This document shows positions 27,183 through 58,126 of a stretch of 64,000 nucleotides of DNA, one piece after another; position 1 is the first letter of the stretch, and every line of letters starts with the position of its first letter. The notes below the pieces were generated by a model. It ran no database searches, had not been told where the DNA came from, and saw nothing but the letters and a program-made list of their open reading frames with translations. Location: positions 47,011 through 111,010 of the forward strand of contig CAYFUR010000003.1 in NCBI GenBank assembly GCA_964346275.1, written 5' to 3'. Source of the stretch: an uncultured Candidatus Sumerlaeota bacterium. Its GTDB lineage: Bacteria; Sumerlaeota; Sumerlaeia; SLMS01. The translations under genes and the position numbers were made by a program.

Positions 27183-28625
27183 ATGGGTGCTTCGCAGGCC
27201 CCCGCGAGCACGAAATTGCCTTTAAGGATTCAGATGCTCGACGACGACGCCACCAGCCTGGCGATGCTCGGGCATGTCCTCTCGCGCCAGGGCTGGGATG
27301 TGATGCCTTGCCAGTCGATCGCCGAAGCCTCCTCAATGCTCCAACAGACCATCCCCGACGTGGCAGTTGTCGATGTCTATCTCGACGGCGAGGATGGACT
27401 CTCCTTCGTCAGCCACTTGCGGAAGGACTATCCAGACGTCGGCATTGTGGTCATTTCCGCGGAAGATACGGAAACGCTGGCAAAAAAAGCCGTGAAATCG
27501 GGGGCTGACTATTTCCTGAGCAAGCCCATCGCCCCGGCCGCATTGGTCCTGACCCTGCGCCGGCTGGCGGAACTGCGCCAGGAACGCCAGCGGGTAACCA
27601 CCCTGGAACACGAATTGGAGCGCTCCGTCCGCGACACGCTCTTTCCCGAAATCGTGACACACAGCGATTCCATGCGCTCGATTCTCCGGCTTGTTGAAAA
27701 GGTGGCCCCCCGCGAGTTATCCGTTTTGATCTGCGGGGAAAGCGGAACGGGAAAAGAACTCGTCGCCCGTGCGATCCACCAGCATAGCCTCCGGTCCAAA
27801 GGGCCTTTCGTCGAACTCAACTGCGCGGCACTGCCTCCCAACCTGGTGGAAAGCGAACTTTTCGGCCATGAAAAGGGAGCCTTCACCGGGGCAGTCGCCT
27901 CGCGCGCGGGGAAGATCGAACTTGCGGACGGAGGCACGCTCTTTCTTGATGAAATCGGAGAGCTCCCGCTGGAAATACAGCCGAAGCTTCTCCGGGCGCT
28001 TCAAGAGCGGCGGGTCACTCGAGTTGGGGGCAAAGAGGACATTCATTGCGATTTCCGCCTGGTGACGGCGACAAATCTCGACCTGCTGAAAGAGGTGCGC
28101 GAGAACAATTTCCGCGAAGACCTCTTTTATCGCGTGTCCGTCTTCCCGATCAAATTGCCGCCGCTACGCGAACGCATGGAAGACATGCCCATGCTGCTGG
28201 CGCACTTCCTGAAACAGGAGGGGATTCAGAACCCACACATTTCCGATGAGGCCCGGGCGGCGCTTCAGGTCTATCACTGGCCCGGGAATATCCGCGAGCT
28301 AAAGAATTTCTCCCAGGCGGTGCCCCTCCTGACGGATAATGAGTTGATCGACGAAGACGCCGTCATGGCCTACTTTGGCAGCCGCATCGGCGGGGGCCCC
28401 CCCCCCCCCCCCCCCCCCCCAAACCCCCCGAAGAGGCAGGGGGGCAGCGGCGGATCAAAAACCCGCCGGCAAAATGGCGGCGCGGGACGCCAGGAAAACC
28501 TCCATGCCTTGCGTGTCTACAACGGCAATGTGCCCGAGGCCGCCCTTGCCCTTGGGATGGGACGAGCCACCCTTTATAAATACATCAAGAAAAACGATAT
28601 CACCCTCGAAAACTTCACCGTATAA
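27183..28625 (+). CDS. Sigma-54-dependent transcriptional activator (NtrC family: REC + AAA+ + Fis-type HTH) with internal Pro8 linker
   Basis: REC domain 'VAVVDVYLDGEDG'. AAA+ sigma-54 domain: 'VLICGESGTGKELVA', the GAFTGA loop 'HEKGAFTGA', 'LFLDEIGELP'. C-terminal HTH 'EAALALGMGRATLYKYIKK'. No adjacent sensor kinase. Confidence 0.9.
   Translation: MGASQAPASTKLPLRIQMLDDDATSLAMLGHVLSRQGWDVMPCQSIAEASSMLQQTIPDVAVVDVYLDGEDGLSFVSHLRKDYPDVGIVVISAEDTETLAKKAVKSGADYFLSKPIAPAALVLTLRRLAELRQERQRVTTLEHELERSVRDTLFPEIVTHSDSMRSILRLVEKVAPRELSVLICGESGTGKELVARAIHQHSLRSKGPFVELNCAALPPNLVESELFGHEKGAFTGAVASRAGKIELADGGTLFLDEIGELPLEIQPKLLRALQERRVTRVGGKEDIHCDFRLVTATNLDLLKEVRENNFREDLFYRVSVFPIKLPPLRERMEDMPMLLAHFLKQEGIQNPHISDEARAALQVYHWPGNIRELKNFSQAVPLLTDNELIDEDAVMAYFGSRIGGGPPPPPPPPNPPKRQGGSGGSKTRRQNGGAGRQENLHALRVYNGNVPEAALALGMGRATLYKYIKKNDITLENFTV
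28397..28420. repeat. 24-nt homopolymeric C tract inside the CDS (encodes PPPPPPPP)
   Basis: c(24) at 28397-28420, followed by aaa and c(6), read directly from the sequence. It lies in frame between the AAA+ domain and the HTH of the sigma-54 activator. Confidence 0.95.
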
Positions 28626-28635
28626 TCCCTCAATC

Positions 28636-28656
28636 TCTTGGAATTTGCCGTTGCGA
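28636..28656 (+). promoter_or_regulatory. Candidate sigma-54 -24/-12 element (imperfect)
   Basis: 'TTGGaatttgccgtTGCg': GG at 28640-41 and GC at 28653-54, but with an 11-nt rather than the canonical 10-nt spacer. About 75 nt upstream of the epimerase start and just downstream of the sigma-54 activator gene. Confidence 0.2.
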
Positions 28657-28729
28657 ACCCATCCCTCCGCGGCGAGGTTGGCCGCCGCGGCGCGACACGC
28701 TGCGCGACATCTTCCAATCGGAGCCCCCG

Positions 28730-29860
28730 ATGTTCAAACGCGTGCTGGTTACCGGCGGTGCCGGGTTTATCGGTTCCCACATGGTCGACCTCCTGCTTGA
28801 AAAGGGCTACAAAGTCCGCGTCTTCGACAATCTCGAGCCACAAGTCCATGGAGAAAGAGACACGCCACCCGGATATCTGTCGCGCGAGGCTGAATTCATT
28901 CGTGGCGATGTACTCGACCGCGATGCCTTGAAGAAAGCGATGGAAGGATGCGACGCGGTGATTCACGACGCCGCCATGGTTGGTGTCGGTCAGTCGCAAT
29001 ACCAGATCCAGCGCTATACGCATGTCAATACAACGGGGACGGCCATTCTGCTGGATATCCTGGCCACGGAAAAAACGACCGTGGAGCGCCTCATGGTCGC
29101 CAGCTCGATGAGTATTTACGGAGAGGGCCTTTATCGGCGGCCATCGGACGGCGCAGCAATGGCCCCTTCGCTCCGTCCGGACCACCAGTTGGAAGCGTTG
29201 GATTTCGAGATGCGCGACCCGGAGACCGGCGAGGCACTCGAGCCGGTGCCTACCCCGGAAAGCAAACCACTTTATTGTACATCGATCTATGCGCTGAACA
29301 AGAAAGACCAGGAAGAATATTCCATCGTGGCAGGCAGGACCCATGGAATCCCCGTTGTGGCCACCCGGTTCTTCAATGTTTACGGGCCGCGCCAATCCCT
29401 TTCAAACCCTTACACAGGGGTGGCAGCGATCTTCTCCTCGCGTATCAAGAACGGCAACCCTCCGTTGATTTACGAGGACGGCCATCAGTCGCGGGACTTT
29501 ATATACGTCCGCGACCTGGTGGAGGCGAAACTTTTTCTCCTGGAAAACGAAAAGGCCAATCTGGAAGCCTTCAATATCTGCACGGGCCGCTCGACTTCGG
29601 TGCTCAAGATCTCCGAGATCCTCGCGGAACTCCATGGCAAGCCAGAACTCAAGCCAGAGGTGGTGAAGCGTTTCCGCTCCGGTGATATCCGTCATTGTTT
29701 TGGAGACCCCAAAAAGCTCGCCAGCCTTGGATGGACTGCCCAGACGCCCCTGGAAGAAGGAATGAAGATCCTTGTGAAGTGGTCCGCCGAGCAGGAAGCG
29801 GTCGACCAGGTGGATAAAGCCCACCGGGAACTCGTCGAACGCGGATTGGTAAAGGAGTAG
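28730..29860 (+). CDS. NAD-dependent nucleotide-sugar epimerase/dehydratase (SDR family)
   Basis: ATG at 28730, preceded by GGAG. 'VLVTGGAGFIGSH' is a Rossmann motif; a YxxxK catalytic motif is expected; the protein is 376 aa. Confidence 0.85.
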   Translation: MFKRVLVTGGAGFIGSHMVDLLLEKGYKVRVFDNLEPQVHGERDTPPGYLSREAEFIRGDVLDRDALKKAMEGCDAVIHDAAMVGVGQSQYQIQRYTHVNTTGTAILLDILATEKTTVERLMVASSMSIYGEGLYRRPSDGAAMAPSLRPDHQLEALDFEMRDPETGEALEPVPTPESKPLYCTSIYALNKKDQEEYSIVAGRTHGIPVVATRFFNVYGPRQSLSNPYTGVAAIFSSRIKNGNPPLIYEDGHQSRDFIYVRDLVEAKLFLLENEKANLEAFNICTGRSTSVLKISEILAELHGKPELKPEVVKRFRSGDIRHCFGDPKKLASLGWTAQTPLEEGMKILVKWSAEQEAVDQVDKAHRELVERGLVKE

Positions 29861-29870
29861 GGTTATCGGG

Positions 29871-31640
29871 GTGCTGCGAGAAAGAAAACCACTGGAATCA
29901 AGGATACCCGATATCGGCGACGATATAGACAGGAAGGAGCGCCGAATCTGGCTCTCCCTTCCGATACTCTATATGCTGGTCATCCTGACCTGGGCGGGAG
30001 TTTTTGGTGTTCGCCTCGCTGGTCCTCCCAATATTATGGATGAGGACCAGCGGCGCCCGGCGGCCTATGCCCTCGACGTGATCGCCAACAACCAGTGGCT
30101 GGTGCAACGCGACGATACCGGAGACATCACCTCAAAGCCGCCGCTCTATACGTGGCTTGTCGTTTTCGCGTCCGGGATCTGGGGAGGACTGGATAACTTT
30201 ACGCTCTACCTGCCGGGCGCCTTGTCCGTTTTGGCGCTGGCTCTCATGATCCAGGCTCTTGGCGCATCAACTTTCGGACGGCTCGGAGGCTTCTTCGGGG
30301 CCGTGGCCTACCTCTTATCATCGGCGGGATTCGAACAGGTCCACCTCGCCCGAACAGATGCGGTCTTTTCGCTCGCGGTTTTCGTTTCCGCGCTGCTCGC
30401 CTACCAGGCGGCGCTGGGCCGGCGGTCCTGGATCTGGTTCTGGCTGGCATCGGCGATTGCCACACTGACAAAAGGACCACTGGGCCTGCTCCTCGCCGCG
30501 GGCGGGCTCCTTGGGCTGATCGGCCTGGGCAGTAAGAAAACAGGCGGAGAAAACCGCCCGGTGGTTCGCCAGCACATAATCGGTTTTGCGCTTTTTCTAC
30601 TGATTTCAGGAGGGTGGTTCTTCCTGGCCTGGCTCAGTGCGGGCCAGCCGCTCATCGACAAAATGATCGGCAAGGAACTCGTCGGCCACGCCGTGGAAAG
30701 CGGAGACGGCCAAAAGCCATTCGAAGGGCTTGTAAAGCCGAGTCTTTATTTTCTTTCACGCTTTCTCCCCTGGTCGGTTTTTGCCCTTATTGGAATCGTT
30801 CGCGTTTTTACGTCCCCTTCCGCAAGCCTTGAGAACCGGCGTATGGAACGGTTCCTCGCGGCCTATTTTCTTTTTGGCCTCGCGCTCTTCTCCATCGCGC
30901 CCCATCAGCGCTGGGTGCATCAGTACCCTTTGCTTCCCGCCGCCTCGTTGCTCGCGGGATGCGAGATCGTGCGTCTTCTCCCCCGCCGCTGGATTTTTCC
31001 TGCATTACGCTGGTATCCGCTGGCGGCGGGAGCCCTCCTGATATGCGCCGGAGTCGTCTATCAAGCAGTTCGAGGCCCGCGCGTCGAACGATCCGTCCTC
31101 TCTCGCGAAGCCGCCGAATACATCGAAGAAGCCACCCACAGCCATTTTCCCATCATGCACGTCGATTCAACCATGGCCGTGCAGTATTACCTGGGCACCA
31201 TGCGGCCGCGTATCACACATGCGCAGGCCGTGGAGGCACTCGCCTCGGACCACGCCGCCTTCGTCCTCGTTCAGGACAAGGACGATTTCGACAAGATCTA
31301 CTGGAAGAATCCGGATGGCATCCACATTATCAAGGATTGGAACGAGTCCGGACGGGATTATCCCTATATGCGTCTTCTCGGAAACCGCCCCGCGATGGAC
31401 CAGTACGAGAGGCTCGTCTTCTATCAAAACGACTTTCGCGTCGCGACTGCGGGAGCGCGCCTGGAACGGATGACCTACAACCAGTTTGAATTCTTCCCCT
31501 ATGGCGAGGCTCCCCGCGCCGTCATCACCAACGACGCGGGAAAACGCCGCACCGTCCGCGTTGGATTTATCGAGGGAGAATCGAAGAAAATGAAGAAACG
31601 CCGTCTGGAACCTGGCGAGTCCGCCGTCTTCACTCCCTGA
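29871..31640 (+). CDS. GT-C glycosyltransferase, ArnT/PMT-like (GT39/GT83 family)
   Basis: GTG start. 'DEDQRRPAAYALDV...SKPPLYTWLVVFA' is an ArnT-type first-loop motif; 'ATLTKGPLGLLLAAGG'; about 12 TM helices plus a C-terminal soluble domain. Confidence 0.75.
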   Translation: MLRERKPLESRIPDIGDDIDRKERRIWLSLPILYMLVILTWAGVFGVRLAGPPNIMDEDQRRPAAYALDVIANNQWLVQRDDTGDITSKPPLYTWLVVFASGIWGGLDNFTLYLPGALSVLALALMIQALGASTFGRLGGFFGAVAYLLSSAGFEQVHLARTDAVFSLAVFVSALLAYQAALGRRSWIWFWLASAIATLTKGPLGLLLAAGGLLGLIGLGSKKTGGENRPVVRQHIIGFALFLLISGGWFFLAWLSAGQPLIDKMIGKELVGHAVESGDGQKPFEGLVKPSLYFLSRFLPWSVFALIGIVRVFTSPSASLENRRMERFLAAYFLFGLALFSIAPHQRWVHQYPLLPAASLLAGCEIVRLLPRRWIFPALRWYPLAAGALLICAGVVYQAVRGPRVERSVLSREAAEYIEEATHSHFPIMHVDSTMAVQYYLGTMRPRITHAQAVEALASDHAAFVLVQDKDDFDKIYWKNPDGIHIIKDWNESGRDYPYMRLLGNRPAMDQYERLVFYQNDFRVATAGARLERMTYNQFEFFPYGEAPRAVITNDAGKRRTVRVGFIEGESKKMKKRRLEPGESAVFTP

Positions 31641-32556
31641 CTGGGAAAGCTTGATCCCAATCTTCGCTCTTCCCTTTGTTCCGTCTCTTTTTCTGGAAGC
31701 CGCCTTCGATCAGTTTCTGGACTTTGGTGCCCCAATCAAAAGGCGTATAGAAGGCGAAAACCGCCTGGACCGCAAACATGCCAATCCCGGCGCCCAAAAT
31801 CACGTCGCCGGGATAATGGCGCCGGTATCGCACGCGCGCAAGTGCACACCCCACTGCAAGCAAATACCAGAGGAACCGGCCTTTCGGAAGAACACGCGCC
31901 AGGTAAGCCGCAAGAACAAAGGCACCCGCGGCATGGCCACTGGGGAAGGAGGAATAATTTGAAATGCTCAGGATTCCGCGCTCTTCGCCAAAGGGGAGCC
32001 TCCCCGAAATCCAACTGAAGATTTCCGTTCCGGGCCGTTCCCGGGAAAACCAGAGCCAGTAGTCTCCAGGAACGGGCTCGAGCACGGTGTTGCTGTATTG
32101 ATTGAGATAAGAGGAAATTTCTTCCTGCTCCGCTTTCCCCATTTTCCAACCATATTTCGGGCGTGCCCGTCCCGTGGAGAATTTGATCGCGTTGACTGCC
32201 AGTGAAGAGATGAGAACCGCGCACAGCAAAGGCACGAGCGTGCCGCGGAGATCCTGGCGATAAATCCAGATCACCAAGGCCACCGTGGCCATCACCGTAA
32301 AAGTCGCGAATTGCTCCGTCGTAGAAAAGAACTCATCGAGAGCATCGAGAGAATACTTCAAAAAGAAGTAGAGAGCATCCCAGGAAGCACGGGAGAACTG
32401 GATTTCAACGGCAGCCACCAGCGCGGGAATTACAAGATAAAGCCAGCTTCTTCCGGTGAGGGGCTTGCGAAAGGGATAATTGCGATTGTCGGACGGAGCA
32501 GGCATTTCCAACCTTGTGCAGAGGAGAATGACTGGGCTTGCCCCTTTGCCGGGCAT
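31630..32556 (-). CDS. PAP2-family phosphatase (membrane)
   Basis: 'FPSGHAAGAFVLAAY...VRYRRHYPGDVILGAGIG' are PAP2 motifs 2 and 3 (PSGH, SRxxxxxHxxxD-like). It is antisense to and overlaps the ends of both flanking GT-C genes; an alternative ATG lies at 32505. Confidence 0.8.
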   Translation of the reverse strand: MPGKGASPVILLCTRLEMPAPSDNRNYPFRKPLTGRSWLYLVIPALVAAVEIQFSRASWDALYFFLKYSLDALDEFFSTTEQFATFTVMATVALVIWIYRQDLRGTLVPLLCAVLISSLAVNAIKFSTGRARPKYGWKMGKAEQEEISSYLNQYSNTVLEPVPGDYWLWFSRERPGTEIFSWISGRLPFGEERGILSISNYSSFPSGHAAGAFVLAAYLARVLPKGRFLWYLLAVGCALARVRYRRHYPGDVILGAGIGMFAVQAVFAFYTPFDWGTKVQKLIEGGFQKKRRNKGKSEDWDQAFPVRE

Positions 32557-32573
32557 CCTGGAAGCAGGTCACT

Positions 32574-34352
32574 ATGACAGCGGATGCTCCCATTGACCCA
32601 GCAAGAAGCGCTTCCCGTGAAGAATCCAGATCGGGAGGAACTCTGACAAAAGGCTTATTCGTGACAAAGCAAAAATGGGTTCCTCTGGTTCTCTTTCTCG
32701 CGAGCTTCGCTCTGTTCCTCCTTGGGAATCATTCCCACGGAGTCTGGAATCGCGATGAATCGCGCTATGCCGTCGCCACGAGGGAAATGATCCAAACAGG
32801 GGATTTGATCATCCCCCACTTCAATGGGGAAGTCCGATACGATAAACCGATTTTGATCTACTGGCTCATGGCGGCGCCCATGAAGGTCCTCGGCGTCAAT
32901 GAGTTCAGCGTTCGCTTTCCCAGCGCCCTCATGGGGGCTTTCCGAGTCGTCCTGATTTACTTCCTGGCTCTCTCTCTTGGTGCCAGCCGCCGAGCCTCCG
33001 TTCTGGCTGGCGTCATGGCCACACTCAGCTTTTTGCTCCTTTTGATTTCCAAGGCGGCGACAACGGATTCCACGCTTGTTCTGACCGTGGTTGCGGCCAT
33101 GTTTCTTTTCTGGCTCCAGGTTCGCCAAGGCTTTACCTGGAAGCGCCATGTCCTGTTCTGGGCGGCGATCGCCTTCTCCGGCCTTGTGAAAGGGCCTCCG
33201 GGCATCCTGGTTGTCGCGCTGGGAACCGTCACGTTCCGGCTGTTGAGCGCCTGGAGGCGCCGCCGTCATCCCGAGTCGCCCGATGAACCGGCCCCCACGC
33301 CTTTTCTGACCTGGCTGGTCCGTTTTGCCGGCGGCCTGGCGGTGCTGCTCCTCATAACGCTTCCCTGGGTGATACCGGCCTGGGTCCGCACCGATGGCGG
33401 CTTCTTCGCGCATTCCATCGGAAAACACGTTATCGAGCGGGCCCAAACGGAAATGGAGGGCCATGGCGGCTCGTTCTTCTATTATATTCCCGTCGCACTG
33501 GCCGCCATGCTTCCCTTCACGGCCCTCTGGGTTGCGTCGATTTACTGGGCCTGGAAAAAACACCGCCGCGTTGAGGTCCGCTTTCTTTGGAGCTGGTTCC
33601 TCCCCGGCCTGATTCTGTTTTCCGCTGTGAGCACCAAACTCCCCCACTACATCGCCCCCTTGCTTCCCGCGATGATCCTCATGGGCGCCCTTTGGTGGAC
33701 TGAACTGGAAGTGGGGAAATTCTCACGCCAGGTGAAACGGTTCGTCCCTTCGGGCTGGTGGTATGCCGGCGCGATTTTCAACCTGGTGGTTGGGGTGGGC
33801 ATCCTCGTTGGGATTCCATTGGCCATCATTGGAATTGGAGCCCCCGTCGGCCCGGTTCCGGTGGCCATCATCGCTGGCTTGCTCGGTCCGGGGCTGATTT
33901 TAGGCGCCCATTTCTGGTGGCGCAGACAGCCAAGACGTTCGCTCGCCTGGAGCGCCGGCGGATGGATTCTGGGCCTGAGCCTTGGCTTTGCCTTCGGCCT
34001 CCCCGCCGTCAATGCCTCCCGCCCCTCCCAGAAAGCAGGGGCCTGGCTCCAGGAAAACGCCCCTGAAGACACCCGCCTTCTCATGGCGGAATTCGATGAG
34101 CCGAGCCTTGTTTTCTATGGCGGCGGGCCGTTCACAACGATCGGCACGGGCGAGCCGGAACGCGCGTTTCGGCTCCTTAACGATTTACAGACACCCACGG
34201 CACTGGTAACGACTCCAGACCGCTGGCGCAAATACCAGCGAGAGTATACCGGGCCGCCTGTCTCGCCGCGGGTTTCCGAGCGCTATCGCGTGAAGGGCTT
34301 TTACTTCGAACGCGGCGAGCCTCTGACCCTCGTCATTGCAGGAAACTGGTAA
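32574..34352 (+). CDS. GT-C glycosyltransferase, ArnT-like (GT83/GT39 family)
   Basis: ATG at 32574 (the ORF is open from TTG 32538). 'NRDESRYAVATREMIQTGDLIIPHFNGEVRYDKPILIYWLMA' is a strong ArnT/PMT N-terminal signature; 'SGLVKGPPGILVVALG'. Confidence 0.8.
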   Translation: MTADAPIDPARSASREESRSGGTLTKGLFVTKQKWVPLVLFLASFALFLLGNHSHGVWNRDESRYAVATREMIQTGDLIIPHFNGEVRYDKPILIYWLMAAPMKVLGVNEFSVRFPSALMGAFRVVLIYFLALSLGASRRASVLAGVMATLSFLLLLISKAATTDSTLVLTVVAAMFLFWLQVRQGFTWKRHVLFWAAIAFSGLVKGPPGILVVALGTVTFRLLSAWRRRRHPESPDEPAPTPFLTWLVRFAGGLAVLLLITLPWVIPAWVRTDGGFFAHSIGKHVIERAQTEMEGHGGSFFYYIPVALAAMLPFTALWVASIYWAWKKHRRVEVRFLWSWFLPGLILFSAVSTKLPHYIAPLLPAMILMGALWWTELEVGKFSRQVKRFVPSGWWYAGAIFNLVVGVGILVGIPLAIIGIGAPVGPVPVAIIAGLLGPGLILGAHFWWRRQPRRSLAWSAGGWILGLSLGFAFGLPAVNASRPSQKAGAWLQENAPEDTRLLMAEFDEPSLVFYGGGPFTTIGTGEPERAFRLLNDLQTPTALVTTPDRWRKYQREYTGPPVSPRVSERYRVKGFYFERGEPLTLVIAGNW

Positions 34353-34393
34353 CGCCGAACCATCTCCGAAAGAAGGATCTGTCCTCCGCCCCG

Positions 34394-35515
34394 ATGATTC
34401 CCTATCTCGACCGCGACCTGCTCCGATCGTTTCTCCTGACTTTTTTCGTCCTGATGGCTTTTATCCAGGTCGGCTACCTGGTTTCCGTTCTCCTGGAAAA
34501 CTCGAGCTATATTTTCGGTGCCGATGAGTCAAAGCTCGGCTGGGTCCTTCTCTATTACGCCGTGACGATTCCACGCCAGGCGTCCTATGCCATTCCCGTG
34601 GTGACATCCGTCTCTCTCCTTTGGGTCTATACACAGAAGAGCCGGCAGAACGAAACCCTGGCATATCTCTCCGGTGGAGTCGGGCCGCCGCGGCTGGCGC
34701 TTCCGCTCATCGTTGCCGCGTTTCTTTTCTCCATCGCCACCTACATGATTATCGAGTACCTCGCCAATCCCGCGGAACGGTATGCTTATCGCATCGAACG
34801 CATCAATATCCAGGACCGCGGACTCGATACCCTGACACGCGAGCAGGACGTTTTTCAAAAAGGACGGGGAAACCGCTTCTATAGCATTCGAGAGTTCGAA
34901 CCCACTGACTCCACCATGGATGCTCCGATCATCATCGACATGGGGCCTCGATGGAGCTCCCCCGTCTGGCGGCTTGACGCGGATTCCGCCGAGCGCACCG
35001 AATTAGACGGCAAAGCCGAATGGGTCTTCTATGATGCCGTTTTCCGGCGGTTTACGCCCGAGGGGACAGTCTCCCAGTTTACTCAGAGGCCACGGCTTTC
35101 GGAAAGCGATCTGGGAGTCAAGCTGGAGGAGGAACTGACGCGCTATCTCCGCCAGCGATTCAAACCGGACCAGATGGGTTTCCGCGAATTGAGGGATTAT
35201 ATCGAGTTGTTTGAGATACAGGGCAAGCCGACCGCCAAGCTGCGGACGCGCCTGCATTTCAATTTCGCCATCCCGCTGAGCAGCTTCATCCTCTCCATCC
35301 TGATGTGCGGCCATATTCTGAGACCGTCCGCCGCCGGCGTGGTTGTCGGCTTCGGCGGCGGACTGGTCATCATTGCGGTCTATTTCGCGAGCATGATCGC
35401 TTTCCGCACCATGGCGGTGTCCGGGGCGGTCGATCCCATTTTCGGTGCCTATACGCCAGCCCTGGTGGGGCTGGTGATCGGGATCATGCTCCTGAAACGA
35501 TACCGGCCGGCCTAG
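34394..35515 (+). CDS. LptF/LptG-family (YjgP/YjgQ) permease
   Basis: ATG at 34394. N-terminal 'MIPYLDRDLLRSFLLTFFVLMAF' is typical of the LptF/G family: three N-terminal TM helices, a periplasmic beta-jellyroll region and C-terminal TM helices. Confidence 0.7.
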   Translation: MIPYLDRDLLRSFLLTFFVLMAFIQVGYLVSVLLENSSYIFGADESKLGWVLLYYAVTIPRQASYAIPVVTSVSLLWVYTQKSRQNETLAYLSGGVGPPRLALPLIVAAFLFSIATYMIIEYLANPAERYAYRIERINIQDRGLDTLTREQDVFQKGRGNRFYSIREFEPTDSTMDAPIIIDMGPRWSSPVWRLDADSAERTELDGKAEWVFYDAVFRRFTPEGTVSQFTQRPRLSESDLGVKLEEELTRYLRQRFKPDQMGFRELRDYIELFEIQGKPTAKLRTRLHFNFAIPLSSFILSILMCGHILRPSAAGVVVGFGGGLVIIAVYFASMIAFRTMAVSGAVDPIFGAYTPALVGLVIGIMLLKRYRPA

Positions 35516-35525
35516 GATCCGTATA

Positions 35526-37091
35526 TCACGGATTGTAGAGCAGGCTGCCTTCGATAACTCGATCAAGGCGGTCTGAGTAGCGAATTTCGACGAAGTAAGG
35601 CCCACGGCCGTCCTCGCGTCCCGACAAATCCGCTTCCCAGATGTGATGGCTTTCCGCGGGATTCACCCAGCTTTTGCCGGAGTCCATCGGGCCGCTATAC
35701 AGCGCCTGGGCCATGGGGTCTTCCTGGGGCGCGAAGTCCATTTCACTCCATTCACTTCCGTTGATGCGATACATCACCTCGGCGCCAGGCATCCCATCGA
35801 AAATGTTGGCCAGCAGCTTCTCGCTGTCGCCAAACTGCTGCTCCGGCGGGTAGATTCGCATCTGAAAATCCTTGTCCATGCCCGCCGCTTTATATTCGAA
35901 GGTATAGTCCGTTCCATTGATCGCCAGAATCGTATAGCCGTTGGGCGACCCATCACGCTGGTCGGCCAGAGGAATGCCGCGGGCATCCTTCGGCCCGCTC
36001 CACCAGGACCCGGAGACCGTGACCGTGTTGTGGCTGTGGAACTCGCCGTCCCCTTCCCAGCCTTCCTCTTCCGTGAAGAAATGATGGTTGTTGTAGTGCG
36101 TATGGCCGCTGACGGCGACGATCCATTTGCGATCCTTCAAGACGTCAAAGAGTGCCTGGATGTTGCCTGTCAGCTTGTTGCGGCGGGTGGCGGACCAGAG
36201 CGGCGCGTGGGTGCCGATGACGATCAGCCGATCCTCGGGCACGTACTCCAGGTTCCTCTCGAGCCAATCGATCTGCCAGGGTTCGAACGTCTCATCGTAC
36301 GTCCCCGTCCGTTCTTTACCCCCGAGCCAGCGAATATTGTCGAACACGACAAAGTGAGCCTTGCCGTAATTGAATGTATAGTTCGCGGGGCCAAAGTACC
36401 GATTGAACGTCTCGTCGGAATGCTCGTCATCCGGGGCATCAAAGTTTAAGTCATGGTTTCCCAAAACGTGGTAAAAGGGCACGCCCACCTTGCCCACGGA
36501 GCGGATATAGCGGTCGAAGAGATTCAGATGATCAAACATAATGTCGCCGAGCACGATTGCGAAGTCGGGATTCATCAGCGGCAATTCCGAGAGAACGTCG
36601 TCGCGTATATAATCCACTTCCTGGCTGGATTCCGGCTGGGTGTCGGCGAGCAAAGCGACTCGGAAGGCTTCCGGCTCCTCGACGGGATAAAGAGGGAATT
36701 CGATCTGATCCGGAAGATCACCGGTCGCGGCCACGCCGTCATAATAACTTTCCGGCGACCCCTGGGGCTTGTGGATGTAATAGAAGCGGGGCAGATTGTT
36801 CTCATCCACCGGCACAGCGTAGCCCTTCGGCTTGACCACGAAGATGATGGAATCATCGTCGACGGGAATTTCAAAACGCCCATCGGGACCTGTTGTGGAG
36901 AAGTCCTCTTCGTCCGCGACAACCACTCCTTCCATGGGCTGGTCGATCCCTTCGTCGAACTGGCCATTTTCGTTCAAATCTTCAAAAACAATTCCTGTGG
37001 CCTGCTCACTGGTCTGGGCGAGCACCGGTGCCGTGCCCAGCGAGAATGCCAAAAGCGTATAGACAGCATAGCGTCTTCTCATGGTCTTCAT
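35526..37091 (-). CDS. Secreted calcineurin-like metallophosphoesterase
   Basis: Start at 37091 (M41 of the longest frame) with GGAGAAAGGA upstream. Signal peptide 'MKTMRRRYAVYTLLAFSLGTAPVLAQ'. Motifs 'GDIMFD', 'GNHD' and 'GHTHYNNHHF'. Confidence 0.8.
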   Translation of the reverse strand: MKTMRRRYAVYTLLAFSLGTAPVLAQTSEQATGIVFEDLNENGQFDEGIDQPMEGVVVADEEDFSTTGPDGRFEIPVDDDSIIFVVKPKGYAVPVDENNLPRFYYIHKPQGSPESYYDGVAATGDLPDQIEFPLYPVEEPEAFRVALLADTQPESSQEVDYIRDDVLSELPLMNPDFAIVLGDIMFDHLNLFDRYIRSVGKVGVPFYHVLGNHDLNFDAPDDEHSDETFNRYFGPANYTFNYGKAHFVVFDNIRWLGGKERTGTYDETFEPWQIDWLERNLEYVPEDRLIVIGTHAPLWSATRRNKLTGNIQALFDVLKDRKWIVAVSGHTHYNNHHFFTEEEGWEGDGEFHSHNTVTVSGSWWSGPKDARGIPLADQRDGSPNGYTILAINGTDYTFEYKAAGMDKDFQMRIYPPEQQFGDSEKLLANIFDGMPGAEVMYRINGSEWSEMDFAPQEDPMAQALYSGPMDSGKSWVNPAESHHIWEADLSGREDGRGPYFVEIRYSDRLDRVIEGSLLYNP

Positions 37092-37294
37092 TCCTTTCTC
37101 CGTTTTCTGGATTGGCAGGATAAGCGTTCCCGGGGCCATTTCAATAAGGATATCGGCGTGCCACCAAATCGCCATGAGCGGGTTTCGACAAAGAGGAGGT
37201 TCGCCGGCCAACCTGGTCCGCCCAGGAGGCGGGAATCTGCCTTGCGGGACAAGATGGGGGCTCGGATCTTACGAACGAAAGGATAGCATAGGGC

Positions 37295-38227: not shown

Positions 38228-38407
38228 GACTAACTGTTTTACCCTTTGATACAAGCCTGGGCTTCCGGCTTGAGACCTTTGAAGTGAAGAGTCTTTTCCT
38301 CTTGGAAGGAATCGTCAAGATTTCTCGGCCAAATAGCGGAAAAACTTCCATAGGCGGGCTTTTTGCTCCCTTCGCCAAAGCGCCAAAACCTTGAACCGGA
38401 GTGTCCC

Positions 38408-39505
38408 GTGAAACGACTCGCTGTCTTGCTCCTCTTCCTTTTTTCGCTCCTCACGGCGGGACACGCCCAAGAATATCGGCTGGCCCTTCCCGGATACGAC
38501 TATACGTTCCCGAGGGACCACGGAGCCCACCCCCAGTTCCAGAACGAATGGTGGTACTTTACCGGTAACCTGGTGGCGGAGAACGGACGGCAATTCGGAT
38601 TCAAATACACGATCTTCCGATCGGCCATCGCGCCTCCGAACACACGCTCCCTGAAGAAGTCCCCCCTTGCGGATTCGCAACTCCTCCTGGGCCATTTCGC
38701 GATCAGTGATCTCGACAAGAAAGATCATGAGAGCTGGGAACGCCTGGGGCGTCCCGGTTTTGGCCAGGCGGAATTCAGCACGGAAACCCTGGCCCTCCGC
38801 GTGGACCGCTGGCGCATTGAGCGCGCCGAGGGAGACTCTATCCACGTCCGGACGGAAACCGGCGACTCGGGCATCGACCTGATGCTCGATCCGCTGAAGC
38901 CCTTCGTGATTCATGGCGAGGAGGGCATCCATCGAAAAGGAGCCGGCCGTGGTCAGGCCTCCCACTACATCACCTACCCGAGGCTCCAAGCCGAAGGCAC
39001 CCTGGCCTGGCGGGGTGAAACATTCCAGGTGGAGGGCCTTGCATGGATGGACCATGAATTCGGATCGAACCAGCTCGGCGAGGAGGAGGTCGGCTGGGAC
39101 TGGTTCGCCATCCAGTTGGATTCAAATGAAGAGCTGATGCTTTATGGCATTCGGCGCCGCGATGGCAGTTTTTCCCCCATTGCCACCGGTTCGTATATAA
39201 ACGCAGAAGGAGAACTGGTGCCGATTCCGAAAAGCGAATACACCATCGAGGAGCTTGACCAGTGGAAATCGCCAAAGTCCGGCGCCGTCTATCCGATGGG
39301 ATGGCGCATCAGCCTCCCCCGTTATGACGCGAATCTTCGCATCGCCCCCGCTTTCAAAAACCAGGAAATGGATACGACCCGCTATACAGGTGCGTATTAC
39401 TGGGAAGGAGCGATTCGAATTTCGGGAAAATGGAAGGGAGCGGAAACGCGCGGGAAAGGATACGCGGAATTGGTTGGCTACGCGGGCGACTTCGGCCTGC
39501 TCTAA
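38408..39505 (+). CDS. AttH/CrtC-like (lipocalin-like hydroxyneurosporene-synthase family) secreted protein
   Basis: Probable GTG at 38408 giving the signal peptide 'KRLAVLLLFLFSLLTAGHA'. 'FPRDHGAHPQFQNEWWYFTGNL' matches the conserved CrtC/AttH N-terminal motif. Confidence 0.6.
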   Translation: MKRLAVLLLFLFSLLTAGHAQEYRLALPGYDYTFPRDHGAHPQFQNEWWYFTGNLVAENGRQFGFKYTIFRSAIAPPNTRSLKKSPLADSQLLLGHFAISDLDKKDHESWERLGRPGFGQAEFSTETLALRVDRWRIERAEGDSIHVRTETGDSGIDLMLDPLKPFVIHGEEGIHRKGAGRGQASHYITYPRLQAEGTLAWRGETFQVEGLAWMDHEFGSNQLGEEEVGWDWFAIQLDSNEELMLYGIRRRDGSFSPIATGSYINAEGELVPIPKSEYTIEELDQWKSPKSGAVYPMGWRISLPRYDANLRIAPAFKNQEMDTTRYTGAYYWEGAIRISGKWKGAETRGKGYAELVGYAGDFGLL

Positions 39506-41145: not shown

Positions 41146-44100
41146 TTGCCTTCATCCCCATCGCCGCGCCCGAAAGCCGTGAGGAGAATTCAGTCTCAGA
41201 TGGAGAGTTTCAGTCCACGCCCTGGACCAGCGAGCGGACAGCATCGAGCCAGCGGCGGTTCCTCGCGCCTCATTGCCCGCAAAAACATTCAACGCCATCT
41301 TTGGCCTCTTATTTACTCTGCCGGGACGGCCATGGCGATTCTCCTCACGGTCCTTCTTTACGACTTCATCCAACAGGAATTCCTCCTTCTAATCTTTTCC
41401 GGCAGAGAGGCCCAATGGCTGGGCGTCTCCGCGAGGGCCTGGTCATTCCGGATCATAATTCTTCTCTTTGCTCTCCTCGCGGGTGCCCTTGTCTATTCTT
41501 TCAGCCTGCGAGCCGCTCTTCTCCAGGAACGGATCGACCGAACAACAAAACGCCTCCGCCAAAAAGAACGCGAAGCCCGGGGCAGGGAAGCGGAACACAA
41601 AGGCATTCTCGCCTCCTTGAAAGACGTGATTTGGGCGGGCGACCCGGAGACTCACGAGATGGTTTATCTGAATCCTTCCGCCGAAGCCCTTTACGGCCTG
41701 CCTCGCGAGAGTTTCTTCCAGAATCCCGATCTCTGGAAAAAAGTGGTGCATCCCGCCGACCAGGAAAAGGTGATGCGCTATACATCGCTGCTTCATCAAA
41801 ACGGTTTCGTTGAAATGAACTACCGCATTGTTCGGCCCGATGGAGAAGTGCGATGGGTCACCGACCAAGGCACAGTGATCCGCAACCAGGAGGGCGGGGC
41901 GAGACGCCTCGCCGGGATCGTCAGTGATATCACGGAACAGGTTTTTGCCCGCGAGGGATTAAAGCGGAGCGAGGAGATGATCAAAAGCATTCTCAACGGC
42001 GCGCCCATCATGATCCGCGCCGTCGACTCCCGCGGAATCATCAAGCTCTGCGAGGGTCGCTCGCTCGAGGCCATTGGTGAAACGCCCGGCCAAGCTGTGG
42101 GCGAACTAGTTCAAAATCACTTCAAAGACGACTTCCAGCAATGGAGCGATTGGATGCGCGCGCTTTCCGGCGAGACCTTTACCTCAATTTGGAGCCGCCG
42201 GGGCTATGTGTTTGAAACCTTCTACTCCCCTCTGAGGGAAGACGGAAAGATCGTTGGGGCCGTTTGCGTGGGGAACGACATCACAACGCGCCAGATTGCC
42301 CAGGAAGCCCTGGAAGAATCGGAAATGCGCTTTCGGCGCCTCGCGGATTCCGCGAACGAGGGCGTCGTGATCTCCCTGGATGGAACCATTCTCGAGGCCA
42401 ATGAAGCCTTCCTGCGGATTTTTGGTCTTGATGAGAAAGAAGTAGAAGGACTGACTGCCAAAGACATCGTTGCCCCTGAAGCCTGTGAACGGACTCTGGA
42501 AAAAATCCGAAACCAGGACGAAGGCGTCTACGAGTCCATCGGGAAAAGAAAAGACGGATCCCGTTTTCCCATCGAGGTTTATGGCCGCGCGATACCTTAT
42601 GAAGGACGGATGGCGCGGGTCACGTCTATACGGGATATCACCGCCGAGAAGCGGATTCGCCAGGAACTGCTCGAGGCGATTGAAACCGCTGAATCCGCAT
42701 CCCGGGCGAAAAGCGAATTCATTGCGAATGTCAGCCACGAAATCCGGACGCCGCTGAACGCCGTGATCGGGCTCGCCCAAATCCTCGAACGCTCCGACCT
42801 GAACGCCCAGCAGCGCGATTACATTCAGACCATTCATCGCTCGGGCGATACCTTGCTCTCGCTGCTCAATGATCTTCTGGATCTTTCAAAAGTCGACGCG
42901 GGGAAACTGGAAATCGAGAAGATCGGTTTCGATGTGCGGGAATGCGTGGAGGCCGTGGGAGATTTGCTCGCGCCGAAAGCGCAGCTCAAAGGGCTGGAAT
43001 TCCTGGTGGAAATTGATCGGGATGTCCCACGCCAGGTGGTCGGCGATCCCTCCCGCCTTCAACAAATCCTCCTGAATCTTGCCGGCAATGCCGTGAAATT
43101 CACTTCCGAGGGTGAAGTGCATATTCGGGTCGAAAGAGAAACAACGGAAAAAGAAATGCCCGGCAGAACGACGCTCCTGTTTTCCATCGAAGATACTGGA
43201 ATTGGCATTTCAACGGAAGACCGAGCGAAGCTCTTTCAGCCATTTTCACAGGTCGATTCGTCCACAACTCGCAAATACGGCGGGACCGGCCTGGGCCTTG
43301 CCATCTCGCGCCAGCTTGTTCACGCCATGGATGGCGAGATCGATGTGGAAAGCGAAGAAGGTGAGGGGACTCGATTCTCTTTTACGCTTCCTCTTTTGGT
43401 ATCAGACAGCCGCACAGCGACGGAAACGGCCTTTAAGCTACAGATTCTCGGGGGAATGAAAGTTCTTCTCGTTGACGAAAATGAGCCCGCGCGCCGCCAG
43501 CTGAGCGGAATGCTTTCTTCCTGGGGCTGCGAAGTCACCGAACTGTCCGGCGGCAAACCCCTCCTGGAAATGGCTCGCGAGAACAGGGATTGCGGCCACT
43601 TCGATGCGATCATCCTGGATCAACAACTTCAGGACATACAACTTGCCGATCTCCTGGAAGAACTTGGCAAAGCAGTGCCGGATCGCACATGTCCTTTTAT
43701 CCTGATGACCGCAGCGACGGCTTCTTCGGAGGAATTGACTCTGATTAACGAGCATTTTGACACCTTCATTCGCAAACCGATCAAACGAACCCAAATGTTG
43801 GAAGCGCTTGTTAACCTTTCTCTCGGCGATGACCAGGACCAGGACATGGGGTTGTCCGAATCAAGCGCCAGCCAGTGGCTTGAGGCGCATGCTCCTGATT
43901 CCCCGGACAGGAGCACGGCCGTTCTCGTCGTCGAGGACAATGAGATCAATCAGCTCGTTGCCCGGGAAATGTTGCGGAATGCCGGTATCGCGTGCGAGTT
44001 TGCCCAAAACGGTCTCGAAGCCCTCGATATGCTGAAACACAAGTCCTATGATCTCGTCTTCATGGACGTTCAAATGCCCGAGATGGATGGGATCGAGGCG

Positions 44101-44688
44101 ACCAGACATCTTCGTGAATCAGGCTGTCAAACGCCCGTGATCGCCATGACCGCCAGCGCTCTCTCGAGGGACCGCGAGCGATGCATGGAAGCGGGAATGG
44201 ATGATTACGTTACGAAGCCCATCAGCATGGAGACTCTCCAGGAGGTGCTCAATCAGCACTTGCATCGATCCAGCACGCAGTCTGGAGAGCAAGAAGGCCG
44301 GGATTCCCACTCAGACCACCGAGGCCCGGTTGACCTCGACCGTTTGAACATCATCACCGCCGGCGATAAAGATGTGATGAAAGAGATTGCCGACCTTTTC
44401 CTGAAGGACGGCCGAAAGCGCCTCTCCGAAATCCGCGACGCTTTGAAGGAGCAGAACCTGGAGGCGGTCCGCAAAAATGCGCATGCGCTCAAAGGTGCCA
44501 GCATGAACCTGGGAGCTCAGGAGCTGGGTGCTACATGCGCGGCATTGGAGAATCGCGCCCGGGAAGCGTCCCTCCCGGCCATGCGCCGTGAATATGCCCA
44601 GGCATGTGAGCAATACCGCGAGGCAGAAGATTTCCTGCACTCTCGTTTAGGCGAGGGAGCAGCGGCGCGACCTAGCGGGCCCAGATAG
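41146..44688 (+). CDS. Hybrid sensor histidine kinase (2 TM, 3 PAS, HisKA, HATPase, REC, REC, Hpt)
   Basis: H-box 'SHEIRTPLNAVIGLAQ'. G-boxes 'GTGLGLAISRQLV'. REC domains 'VLLVDENEPARR' and 'VLVVEDNEINQ...DLVFMDVQMPEMDG'. Hpt 'AHALKGASMNLGA'. Start codon uncertain. Confidence 0.85.
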   Translation: MPSSPSPRPKAVRRIQSQMESFSPRPGPASGQHRASGGSSRLIARKNIQRHLWPLIYSAGTAMAILLTVLLYDFIQQEFLLLIFSGREAQWLGVSARAWSFRIIILLFALLAGALVYSFSLRAALLQERIDRTTKRLRQKEREARGREAEHKGILASLKDVIWAGDPETHEMVYLNPSAEALYGLPRESFFQNPDLWKKVVHPADQEKVMRYTSLLHQNGFVEMNYRIVRPDGEVRWVTDQGTVIRNQEGGARRLAGIVSDITEQVFAREGLKRSEEMIKSILNGAPIMIRAVDSRGIIKLCEGRSLEAIGETPGQAVGELVQNHFKDDFQQWSDWMRALSGETFTSIWSRRGYVFETFYSPLREDGKIVGAVCVGNDITTRQIAQEALEESEMRFRRLADSANEGVVISLDGTILEANEAFLRIFGLDEKEVEGLTAKDIVAPEACERTLEKIRNQDEGVYESIGKRKDGSRFPIEVYGRAIPYEGRMARVTSIRDITAEKRIRQELLEAIETAESASRAKSEFIANVSHEIRTPLNAVIGLAQILERSDLNAQQRDYIQTIHRSGDTLLSLLNDLLDLSKVDAGKLEIEKIGFDVRECVEAVGDLLAPKAQLKGLEFLVEIDRDVPRQVVGDPSRLQQILLNLAGNAVKFTSEGEVHIRVERETTEKEMPGRTTLLFSIEDTGIGISTEDRAKLFQPFSQVDSSTTRKYGGTGLGLAISRQLVHAMDGEIDVESEEGEGTRFSFTLPLLVSDSRTATETAFKLQILGGMKVLLVDENEPARRQLSGMLSSWGCEVTELSGGKPLLEMARENRDCGHFDAIILDQQLQDIQLADLLEELGKAVPDRTCPFILMTAATASSEELTLINEHFDTFIRKPIKRTQMLEALVNLSLGDDQDQDMGLSESSASQWLEAHAPDSPDRSTAVLVVEDNEINQLVAREMLRNAGIACEFAQNGLEALDMLKHKSYDLVFMDVQMPEMDGIEATRHLRESGCQTPVIAMTASALSRDRERCMEAGMDDYVTKPISMETLQEVLNQHLHRSSTQSGEQEGRDSHSDHRGPVDLDRLNIITAGDKDVMKEIADLFLKDGRKRLSEIRDALKEQNLEAVRKNAHALKGASMNLGAQELGATCAALENRAREASLPAMRREYAQACEQYREAEDFLHSRLGEGAAARPSGPR

Positions 44689-52100: not shown

Positions 52101-53021
52101 ATGATAGAAGTCGATAATCTGACGAAATATTACGGTCCCACGCGCTCCATTGAAGACGTAACTTTTTCCGTGGAGAAGGGCGAGGTGCTTGGATTCCTGG
52201 GCCCGAACGGCGCCGGGAAATCGACAACCATGCGTCTGCTGGTTGGACTGAGCCGCCCCACGGCGGGAAGCGCCCGGATTGCCGGTCACGATATCCAGGA
52301 AGGGCACGATGCGATCCGCAAGATGATCGGCTATTTGCCCGAGCAGGCTCCGCTCTACGGGGATATGACGCTTGGCGCCTACCTGCGCTTCATGGCAGGG
52401 ATCAAAGGCGTTCCCATGGGCCAGACGCGCCGCGAGATGGAGCGCACGACGGAACTGGTGAACCTTGAGAAAGATCGCAAGCGCCTGCTGCGCAATCTTT
52501 CCAAAGGCACGCGCCAGCGGGCCGCCATCGCCCAGGCCCTTCTCGGCGACCCGCAGATCCTTATCCTCGACGAGCCCACCATCGGCCTGGATCCCTCGCA
52601 AATCAACGACATCCGCAATCTCGTGAGAAGCATGCGGGGCGAGCGCACCGTGCTCCTCTCGACACACATCCTGCCAGAGGTCGAGATGATTTGCTCGCGG
52701 GTGGTGATCATATCCGCCGGACGCATCGCCGTGCAGGGAACACCGGAAGAGCTGGCGCAGCGCGAGGATCCGCAATTTCATATTGTTGTGCGCGGAGAGC
52801 GGAAGAAGCTGGAAGAGATTCTCTCGAAATACGGCGAGGCAAGAATGGAAGAGCAAGACAACCGCCTGATCGCGACGATCCCGGCTCCCGGGGAACAGCA
52901 GCGCCCTGAGCTGGCGCGGCAGCTCGTTGAGGCAGGGATGGAGCTGCATGAGTTCCACCTGGCCCGGGTCCGCCTGGAGGACGTCTTTCTCCGATCCACC
53001 GCGAGGCCCGCGAAAGAATGA
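52101..53021 (+). CDS. ABC transporter ATP-binding protein (GldA-like, ABC-2 subfamily)
   Basis: Walker A 'GPNGAGKSTT', signature 'LSKGTRQR' and Walker B 'ILILDEPT'. Confidence 0.85.
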   Translation: MIEVDNLTKYYGPTRSIEDVTFSVEKGEVLGFLGPNGAGKSTTMRLLVGLSRPTAGSARIAGHDIQEGHDAIRKMIGYLPEQAPLYGDMTLGAYLRFMAGIKGVPMGQTRREMERTTELVNLEKDRKRLLRNLSKGTRQRAAIAQALLGDPQILILDEPTIGLDPSQINDIRNLVRSMRGERTVLLSTHILPEVEMICSRVVIISAGRIAVQGTPEELAQREDPQFHIVVRGERKKLEEILSKYGEARMEEQDNRLIATIPAPGEQQRPELARQLVEAGMELHEFHLARVRLEDVFLRSTARPAKE

Positions 53022-53779: not shown

Positions 53780-53782
53780 TCC

Positions 53783-57968: not shown

Positions 57969-58126
57969 GGCAGCAGGACTCCGAGAGCATGGATGCCCGC
58001 CGAAGGTGGGCTACGAACCCCGTCATACTCGGATTTCGTAAAGTAAGAAACCCTAGCTCCGGCGTTTATTGGAGTCAACTGGACGATTCAAACTCTGCGG
58101 GAAGGAAGCCACGGACCACGATTCCG

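Follow-up and report, generated by a model that had tools for sequence, protein, structure and literature searches.

Here we present an analysis of a gene cluster from the uncultured phylum Candidatus Sumerlaeota, located on contig CAYFUR010000003.1 of assembly GCA_964346275.1; the whole 64,000-nucleotide stretch that was analysed (positions 47,011 to 111,010) is referred to below as the window. Behind a sigma-54 activator gene, the cluster encodes a nucleotide-sugar epimerase of the extended short-chain dehydrogenase/reductase (SDR) type, two membrane glycosyltransferases of the GT-C fold (GT-C 1 and GT-C 2), a PAP2 lipid-phosphate phosphatase and an LptG-like permease. We tentatively read these genes as a conserved envelope-lipid modification cluster of the Sumerlaeota, built from two linked sub-modules and likely editing lipid A or a related lipid. 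The domain identities, the ArnT-like fold and residues of the glycosyltransferases, the intact PAP2 motifs, the conserved gene order and the recurrent fusion of PAP2 to GT-C domains carry this reading, in which the lipid A substrate, the sugars involved, the reaction order and a possible coupling to LptG are predictions. The lipid A interpretation put forward in the initial annotation of this DNA is plausible and somewhat strengthened.

Gene order and its conservation

The initial annotation had named six genes and their order, and both agree with the open reading frames and Pfam domains; the Pfam profiles PMT_2/PMT, PAP2, Epimerase and LptF_LptG, which it had proposed to search with, were all matched. 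The features of the locus are the following.

27183..28625 (open reading frame from 27111), plus strand: NtrC-family sigma-54 enhancer-binding response regulator (enhancer-binding protein, EBP); Pfam Response_reg, Sigma54_activat and HTH_8
28638..28655, plus strand: sigma-54-like motif TTGGAATTTGCCGTTGCG, ~85 nt upstream of the SDR start
28730..29860, plus strand: extended SDR nucleotide-sugar 4-epimerase, 376 aa; Pfam Epimerase, matched in two stretches
29871..31640, plus strand: GT-C 1, 589 aa, ArnT-fold membrane glycosyltransferase with a C-terminal periplasmic domain and a divergent donor site; Pfam PMT_2
31630..32505 (longest open reading frame to 32556), minus strand: PAP2 lipid-phosphate phosphatase; Pfam PAP2
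32574..34352 (longest open reading frame from 32538), plus strand: GT-C 2, ArnT-like glycosyltransferase; Pfam PMT and PMT_2
34394..35515, plus strand: LptG-like permease of the LptF/LptG family; Pfam LptF_LptG, E 3e-47, profile positions 3-353 of 353

To assess conservation, 174 loci were searched by tblastn with the proteins of the window, and gene neighbourhoods were looked up; loci carry L numbers below, L087 being GCA_020848155.1, L088 GCA_965610335.1 and L177 GCA_964269675.1. The order SDR, GT-C 1, PAP2 (minus strand), GT-C 2 and LptF/G permease was found in six Sumerlaeota lineages, namely the window, L005, L087, L088, L090 and L177, with protein identities to the window of 38-79% in the five others. 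Co-conservation across relatives, on which the initial annotation had let its proposal hinge, is therefore borne out in five further lineages, and the core of the module is not a chance neighbourhood.

The divergent pair of PAP2 (minus) and GT-C 2 (plus) is the tightest unit of the module, being present in all 13 loci that have a GT-C 2 orthologue and an upstream flank (the window, L005, L087, L088, L090, L177, L095, L096, L097, L099, L101, L109 and L116). Directly 3' of GT-C 2, an LptG-like gene follows in seven loci (the window, L005, L087, L088, L090, L095 and L177). One protein considered as a further GT-C 2 orthologue, P0184, was rejected and treated as a paralogue, at 36% identity and from a locus (L178) with neither PAP2 nor LptF/G gene. 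The SDR gene always lies directly upstream of GT-C 1, and this second pair occurs without the PAP2 block in L001 and L010. Distant homologues of GT-C 1 from Verrucomicrobiota, Planctomycetota and other phyla (33-42% identity) have no module neighbours at all.

In the window, 10 bp separate the SDR gene from GT-C 1, and the two are probably co-transcribed across this gap. GT-C 1 and PAP2 converge with an 11-bp overlap, PAP2 and GT-C 2 diverge from starts 68 bp apart (as placed by public gene callers), and 41 bp lie between GT-C 2 and the permease. The same gene callers start PAP2 at 32505, which gives a protein of 291 aa; GT-C 2 measures 604 aa from 32538 and 592 aa from the ATG at 32574. Overlapping 3' ends of the convergent GT-C 1 and PAP2 genes, by 9-44 bp, are seen in several lineages (window 31630-31640; L087 10785-10828; L090 10832-10840); the overlap leaves no space for a terminator, so mutual transcript interference is possible. 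Among genomes, metagenome-assembled Candidatus Sumerlaeota are closest for each protein of the module. A PAP2 protein identical to that of the window is encoded on two metagenome contigs, one from JGI (sample 3300012002) and one from a microbial mat in ENA, whereas an exact look-up of GT-C 1 returned nothing.

Two ArnT-like glycosyltransferases

Both glycosyltransferases resemble ArnT and not the protein O-mannosyltransferases, as the initial annotation had proposed; the PDB sequence and profile matches of both and the Foldseek search with GT-C 1 agree on this. By sequence, ArnT is the sole PDB match at E<=0.01 for either family. The GT-C 1 model and the GT-C 2 alignment both agree with the ArnT layout of an N-terminal multi-helix membrane domain and a C-terminal periplasmic domain. 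GT-C 2 aligns with Cupriavidus metallidurans ArnT (5ezm) at E 7e-12 over residues 44-487 (phmmer) and has aligned equivalents of ArnT D55, R58, Y59, K85, D158, R270 and Y345 (C. metallidurans numbering), positions that are invariant or nearly so in 30 orthologues. The residues kept include those essential in Burkholderia cenocepacia ArnT (PMC5377068). Similarly, the first-loop D-E-x-R-Y-A motif of ArnT is present in GT-C 2, but only partly in GT-C 1.

For GT-C 1, a single-sequence search of the PDB gave no match, nor was there a match to the NCBIfam ArnT model. The profile of its family matched C. metallidurans ArnT at E 3e-12, the only other two matches being Ig-like domains at E 0.025. Its AF2 model (pLDDT 89.8) has ArnT 5f15 as the best Foldseek match (E 4.5e-13, TM 0.60/0.65), while Pmt4 ranks 11th (E 5e-5, TM 0.41) and ALG12 and the oligosaccharyltransferases come well behind ArnT; for GT-C 1, the structure prediction called for by the initial annotation therefore puts ArnT closest and Pmt4 far lower. 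GT-C 1 keeps equivalents of ArnT D55, R58, K85 and D158. Since Y59, E84 and Y345 are replaced by P, S and H, respectively, and the alignment shows no clear counterpart of R270, the sequence suggests that GT-C 1 uses a donor or an acceptor different from that of ArnT. The two enzymes had been called paralogous, which holds in the sense of a distant relationship only (24% identity; hhalign probability 99.8%).

These comparisons also bear on whether one or both GT-Cs might be PMT-like or other protein glycosyltransferases that modify envelope proteins, an alternative that we consider very improbable. It would account for the Pfam PMT and PMT_2 matches, for the name "glycosyltransferase family 39" that homologues carry at NCBI, for a GH38 alpha-mannosidase gene by the cluster in three lineages and for the absence from GT-C 1 of the ArnT Y59, E84 and Y345 equivalents. 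The sequence and fold rankings just described nevertheless favour ArnT, a Pfam search found no MIR domain in either GT-C, and protein O-glycosylation supplies no rationale for the tight linkage to a lipid phosphatase and LptG.

The PAP2 phosphatase

The catalytic motifs of the PAP2 protein, KxxxxxxRP, PSGH and RxxxxxHxxxD (here KFSTGRARP, PSGH and RVRYRRHYPGD), are intact and invariant in 12 homologues, and an insertion of ~70 aa separates motifs C1 and C2. The AF2 model (pLDDT 80) shows a helical membrane core whose best Foldseek match is Aquifex LpxE (6ebu; E 5e-4, TMt 0.69), with Bacillus subtilis PgpB close behind; in a profile search, human LPP3 and PgpB stand above LpxE. At E<=1e-30 the protein belongs to a distinct stand-alone subfamily of 61 clusters (50% identity).

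Fusions of PAP2 to GT-C domains

Four of the relatives encode a third GT-C of 710-763 aa, in which a PAP2 domain at the N terminus is joined to a PMT_2 domain at the C terminus; its gene is located 3' of the permease on the opposite strand. The genes for this GT-C fused to a second PAP2 are the following.

L005 8862-10994
L087 4884-7049
L088 4852-6984
L090 4685-6976

The window and L177 do not have this fusion, its place in the window being taken by a metallophosphoesterase gene. In three lineages the fusion gene is followed by a GH38 alpha-mannosidase gene.

Furthermore, the closest non-orthologous relatives of GT-C 2 are themselves PAP2::GT-C fusions, of 790-830 aa (~200 bits, 30-33% identity). 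The two fusion types are alike only in their PAP2 halves, so fusion arose at least twice. The type closest to GT-C 2, from a second, unrelated lineage (~790 aa), has an overlapping or abutting DedA/VTT gene 3' of it in nine loci, and in six of these a convergent LptF_LptG gene comes after the DedA gene, only remotely related to the permease of the window. PAP2 and an ArnT-fold GT-C are thus linked in three separate ways, with an LptF/G neighbour in two unrelated lineages. The initial annotation had argued that adjacency to an Lpt permease fits a lipopolysaccharide (LPS) context, and this context is strengthened because an LptF/G gene adjoins a PAP2::GT-C fusion in a second, unrelated lineage. 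The fusion family is probably the most interesting lead of this analysis.

Loci with the second-lineage fusion followed by DedA and LptF_LptG genes include L092 (940-5241), L110, L111, L112, L115, L120 and L170; L093 and L094 are without the permease. In L092, the LptF_LptG gene is followed by a MurC-MurB fusion, a Bac_transf gene and another GT-C.

Epimerase and permease

The best solved relative of the SDR protein is 6wjb (E 8e-49), the UDP-GlcNAc C4-epimerase PelX (bioRxiv 10.1101/2020.05.26.111013); other top structure matches include GalE-type enzymes, MoeE5, WbgU and WbpP. Across the Sumerlaeota, SDR orthologues are 63-79% identical, as against 39-46% for the GT-C neighbour. An insertion of ~40 aa (roughly residues 134-175) lies between the two halves of the SDR fold, and the protein is exactly 376 aa long in every called Sumerlaeota orthologue (L001, L087, L088, L090 and L177).

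The permease scores higher with the NCBIfam model of LptG (128.6 bits, cut-off 240) than with that of LptF (70.2 bits), both scores being below cut-off, and its sole PDB match is LptG (6mjp_G). The 64-kb window contains no second LptF/G gene.

A proposed mechanism

We propose that the cluster works as two sub-modules. In the core sub-module, formed by the divergent PAP2 and GT-C 2 genes and then the LptG-like permease gene, PAP2 would take a phosphate off a lipid head group at the periplasmic face, most likely the 1- or 4'-phosphate of lipid A, and GT-C 2 would put a sugar from a polyprenyl-phosphate-sugar donor on the same lipid molecule. Both steps would occur just ahead of LPS extraction by LptB2FG and would follow the logic of LpxE/RgtF or LpxF/RgtD; the sub-module is perhaps co-adapted with LptG, in the manner of 4-amino-4-deoxy-L-arabinose (Ara4N) modification in Burkholderia. 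In the second sub-module, the SDR 4-epimerase would make a 4-epimerised UDP-sugar (of GalNAc, Gal or GalA type). This sugar would be transferred to the carrier lipid by a polyprenyl-phosphate glycosyltransferase whose gene lies elsewhere, and GT-C 1 would add it as a second sugar to the same or a neighbouring envelope glycolipid. In addition to the permease, the O-antigen-type Wzm/Wzt (plus Wzt_C) polysaccharide cluster in the same window counts toward an LPS context.

A broader version of this model would make PAP2 plus an ArnT-fold GT-C a widespread, uncharacterised two-step "dephosphorylate-then-glycosylate" lipid A system with a product co-adapted to the neighbouring LptG; its two parts would be separate genes in the Sumerlaeota and, through at least two independent fusions in other lineages or the same ones, single proteins of ~720-830 aa. 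This we think rather unlikely; if it were true, the modification would be constitutive and possibly essential in the LPS biogenesis of several uncultured phyla instead of a stress response, and export would depend on the modified head group.

Lipid editing or carrier-lipid recycling

The main rival of the lipid-editing model concerns the economy of the carrier lipid. It holds that the PAP2 protein is an undecaprenyl-pyrophosphate (Und-PP) phosphatase regenerating undecaprenyl phosphate (Und-P) at the outer leaflet and that the GT-Cs are polyprenyl-phosphate-sugar (or polyprenyl-pyrophosphate-glycan) transferases with a different acceptor, for instance O-antigen or core, exopolysaccharide or a further glycolipid, so that phosphatase and glycosyltransferases share the Und-P pool and not the acceptor. 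Such a role is possible, if doubtful, and the sequence and fold data do not separate it from lipid editing.

A number of observations weigh against the lipid-editing model, several of them by fitting the recycling of Und-PP. Judged from its sequence and model, the PAP2 protein appears equally compatible with an Und-PP phosphatase. Its best structural match, Aquifex LpxE, is trifunctional and also hydrolyses C55-PP (PMC6581854). SepP is the sole NCBIfam match of the window PAP2 (20 bits, cut-off 250), and for the PAP2 half of the Sumerlaeota fusion, too, models of Und-PP phosphatases rank first, with sub-threshold scores of 78 bits for SepP and 52 bits for the YbjG type. The DedA family comprises Und-P flippases. 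Fusions of PAP2 to DedA, which the nine fusion-DedA operons recall, and to DUF368 have been interpreted as an Und-PP phosphatase joined to an Und-P flippase, the PAP2-DedA ones as units of carrier recycling (PMC10127716, PMC9876793). The large polysaccharide cluster upstream in the window would suit recycling as well.

Other points touch the lipid A substrate or the glycosyltransferases themselves. GT-C 2 reaches 144 bits with the NCBIfam ArnT model, whose equivalog cut-off is 567. The PAP2/GT-C 2 pair of L099 and L101 is surrounded by unrelated metabolic genes, with neither an LptF/G gene nor a donor synthase among them. The largest gap of the model is in fact the missing donor synthase: no donor-forming GT2 of the ArnC/RgtE type was found within 10 kb in any lineage, and the GT2 proteins of the polysaccharide cluster resemble EpsE, TuaG and EpsD rather than ArnC or PpgS and appear to be of a generic exopolysaccharide type. 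A literature search on the Sumerlaeota envelope and LPS returned no lipid A chemistry for the phylum, and tblastn of Escherichia coli LpxA, LpxB, LpxC and LpxD against all fetched loci gave no matches, the loci representing too small a share of their genomes for this to be informative.

Against Und-PP recycling stands the chemistry of transfer itself. An ArnT-type transferase using an Und-P-sugar releases Und-P rather than Und-PP, which leaves no obvious need for a dedicated pyrophosphatase. Moreover, the scores with the Und-PP phosphatase models all fall far under their cut-offs, and LptF/G genes adjoin the PAP2/GT-C combination in two lineages. The initial annotation had set its lipid A phosphatase apart from an UppP/PgpB-type housekeeping enzyme. 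To this extent it was right, the protein belonging to a distinct, narrow subfamily that is found beside GT-C 2 in every ortholog locus examined; its specificity, on the other hand, is not separable from that of an Und-PP phosphatase.

Comparison with known systems

The module is PAP2 plus ArnT-like lipid-editing logic of a known type, in a new arrangement and in an uncultured phylum. Because all components are of known kinds, the finding is incremental rather than surprising. In the LpxE/LpxF plus RgtF/RgtD systems of the Rhizobiales, too, a PAP2 lipid phosphatase gene lies beside one for an ArnT-like GT-C, and both active sites face the periplasm. The donor pathway likewise includes a nucleotide-sugar 4-epimerase (LpsL in Rhizobium), and LpxE is the best structural match of the Sumerlaeota PAP2. 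In contrast to these systems, no RgtE/ArnC-like GT2 is encoded near the Sumerlaeota module, the SDR protein is closest to a UDP-GlcNAc and not a UDP-GlcA epimerase, there are two GT-Cs (three in most relatives), an LptG-like gene lies inside the cluster, and the phylum is a different one. The genes lpxE, rgtF and rgtE are clustered in Oligotropha carboxidovorans (PMC7663294), and the view that an arrangement of this kind is uncharacterised therefore applies to the exact arrangement but not to the adjacency of PAP2 and ArnT-like genes.

With ArnT (GT83) itself the module shares the GT-C fold, and GT-C 2 the catalytic and undecaprenyl-phosphate-binding residues. A viable arnT deletion in B. cenocepacia needs an lptG suppressor mutation (PMC5377068), a requirement that the LptG adjacency in the Sumerlaeota echoes. 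In contrast to ArnT, GT-C 2 lies far under the ArnT equivalog cut-off and is paired with PAP2, and GT-C 1 is without several ArnT residues; nor is there an arnBCADEF context, arn genes being absent from the window and from the 10 kb around the module in six lineages.

Lipid A is modified with amino sugars by the Francisella FlmK/FlmF2/NaxD plus LpxF and the Bordetella LgmABC systems, whose donor derives from a UDP-HexNAc, and Francisella combines an ArnT-family transferase with a PAP2 lipid A phosphatase. A UDP-HexNAc-derived donor matches an SDR closest to a UDP-GlcNAc 4-epimerase, but the Sumerlaeota module includes neither a GT2 nor a deacetylase; the nearest deacetylase and GT2 genes, generic-looking, are ~24 kb upstream in the polysaccharide cluster. 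In the decaprenyl-phospho-arabinose pathway of mycobacteria, a PAP2 (Rv3807c), an epimerase (DprE1/E2) and GT-C arabinosyltransferases are encoded together, and the PAP2 acts on the donor lipid, not on the acceptor. The Sumerlaeota module differs in having no UbiA-type prenyl-phosphoribose synthase and an epimerase of another family, and in the Foldseek search with the GT-C 1 model the Emb/Aft structures match far less well than ArnT. Lastly, the PAP2-DedA and PAP2-DUF368 fusions (PMC10127716, PMC9876793) also tie PAP2 recurrently to membrane proteins that handle the carrier lipid; here, however, the partner is a glycosyltransferase and not a flippase, and the module of the window has no DedA gene.

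The cluster would be the first concrete handle on the envelope lipid chemistry of the Sumerlaeota, a globally distributed phylum without a cultured member. Also, a large, unstudied family of PAP2::GT-C fusion enzymes is indicated, and the fusion of the two domains predicts a mechanistic coupling between phosphate removal and glycosylation of a membrane lipid. If the LptG neighbourhood is functional, it would extend the observation made in Burkholderia that LPS export can depend on head-group modification.

The sigma-54 activator

The EBP contains a GAFTGA loop, a Walker A motif and a receiver aspartate, and is therefore a genuine phosphorylation-dependent sigma-54 activator; its NCBIfam matches all remain under the equivalog cut-offs. 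In five of eight lineages (the window, L001, L010, L087 and L177) an EBP gene precedes the SDR gene in the same orientation; those of L001, L010 and L087 encode orthologues at 58-68% identity, and that of L177 encodes a protein with matching domain architecture. No EBP orthologue adjoins the module in L005, L088 or L090, and an antisense STAS gene separates EBP and SDR in L001, L087 and L177.

A search of the whole window for the -24/-12 consensus TGGCAC-N5-TTGCW, allowing up to two mismatches, gave 19 matches, where 26 are expected by chance, and none in the intergenic regions of the module. The motif listed above has a GG-to-GC spacing of 11 nt instead of the canonical 10. It recurs ~85-95 nt upstream of the SDR gene in L001 and L177 (k-mer comparison), and a sigma-54-like motif with canonical spacing lies upstream of SDR in L005; there is no such conservation in L087, L088 and L090. 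Aligning the regions upstream of SDR with MAFFT yielded no useful information, and a scan of 26.7-37.4 kb for sigma-70 promoters and terminators did no better than on shuffled sequences and so did not define transcription units.

The fullest form of the initial annotation, an inducible lipid A remodelling regulon switched by the adjacent activator, is improbable on this evidence. The frequent position of the EBP gene and the GG...TTGC motif before SDR in the window, L001, L177 and, properly spaced, L005 are what such a regulon would show, as is a hybrid kinase with an Hpt domain that lies beyond the module in the window and has a homologue in the corresponding place in L087. The aberrant spacing in the first three of these loci, the rarity of consensus sites and the lineages in which the EBP gene is absent or set apart by the STAS gene argue the other way; besides, PAP2 and GT-C 2-LptFG are separate transcription units with starts 68 bp apart, and one would hardly expect to find an essential LPS permease in a regulon that is inducible. 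Sigma-54 control is possible but unsupported for SDR and GT-C 1 and finds no support for the PAP2 and GT-C 2/permease units. The placement of the whole module under a sigma-54 activator, as first annotated, is thus not supported, with the EBP adjacent in only five of eight lineages and no canonical -24/-12 promoter found; the activator is a frequent neighbour, loosely associated with the module.

The activator had also been described as an orphan with no cognate kinase nearby. This is correct for its immediate neighbourhood, but a hybrid histidine kinase with an Hpt domain (several PAS, HisKA, HATPase and two REC domains) is encoded at 41146-44688, 12.5 kb downstream, and a 39%-identical homologue occupies the far end of the module in L087 (1-1624). 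This kinase may be the phosphorelay partner of the activator, which in that case would not be an orphan.

A homopolymeric C tract of 24 nt (window 28397-28420) within the EBP gene encodes a poly-proline linker that joins the AAA+ domain to the helix-turn-helix, and is not present in the orthologues of L001, L010 and L087. A length change of 1 nt would remove the DNA-binding domain, which makes the tract a possible slippage-prone switch or a sequencing-prone site. A frameshift artefact at the tract was considered and rejected after manual translation, no alternative frame restoring the sequence of the orthologues.

Surroundings of the module

Upstream, window positions 1-23562 are occupied by a large polysaccharide biosynthesis cluster with an O-antigen-type Wzm/Wzt ABC exporter that has a Wzt_C glycan-binding domain. 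Its glycosyltransferase genes comprise three of GT2 type and at least seven GT4-like ones, and it also encodes methyltransferases, a polysaccharide deacetylase, a hexapeptide acyltransferase, a Bac_transf priming enzyme and a divergent Wzz/GNVR tyrosine-kinase-like protein. Two long open reading frames of this cluster (12651-14138 and 13919-15562) have no Pfam match, and an Rfam scan of the whole window gave no matches.

On the 3' side, the module is followed by genes for a secreted metallophosphoesterase, a CDF transporter, an AttH/CrtC-like lipocalin, a transporter made of a solute-binding protein and a permease, and the hybrid kinase. The metallophosphoesterase (561 aa, window 35526-37211) is syntenic in L005. 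The AttH/CrtC-like double-lipocalin gene is syntenic with the module in four lineages (window 38363-39505; L001 9057-10181; L005 12654-13763; L088 1-65), and in L001 it lies directly 3' of GT-C 1. Further downstream, positions 52101-57159 hold a separate four-gene unit consisting of an ABC ATPase, an ABC-2 permease, an ABC_transp_aux (GldG-like) protein and a DUF4340 protein, and this unit is followed by a gene for a PpiC-type (SurA-like) rotamase at 57875-59143.

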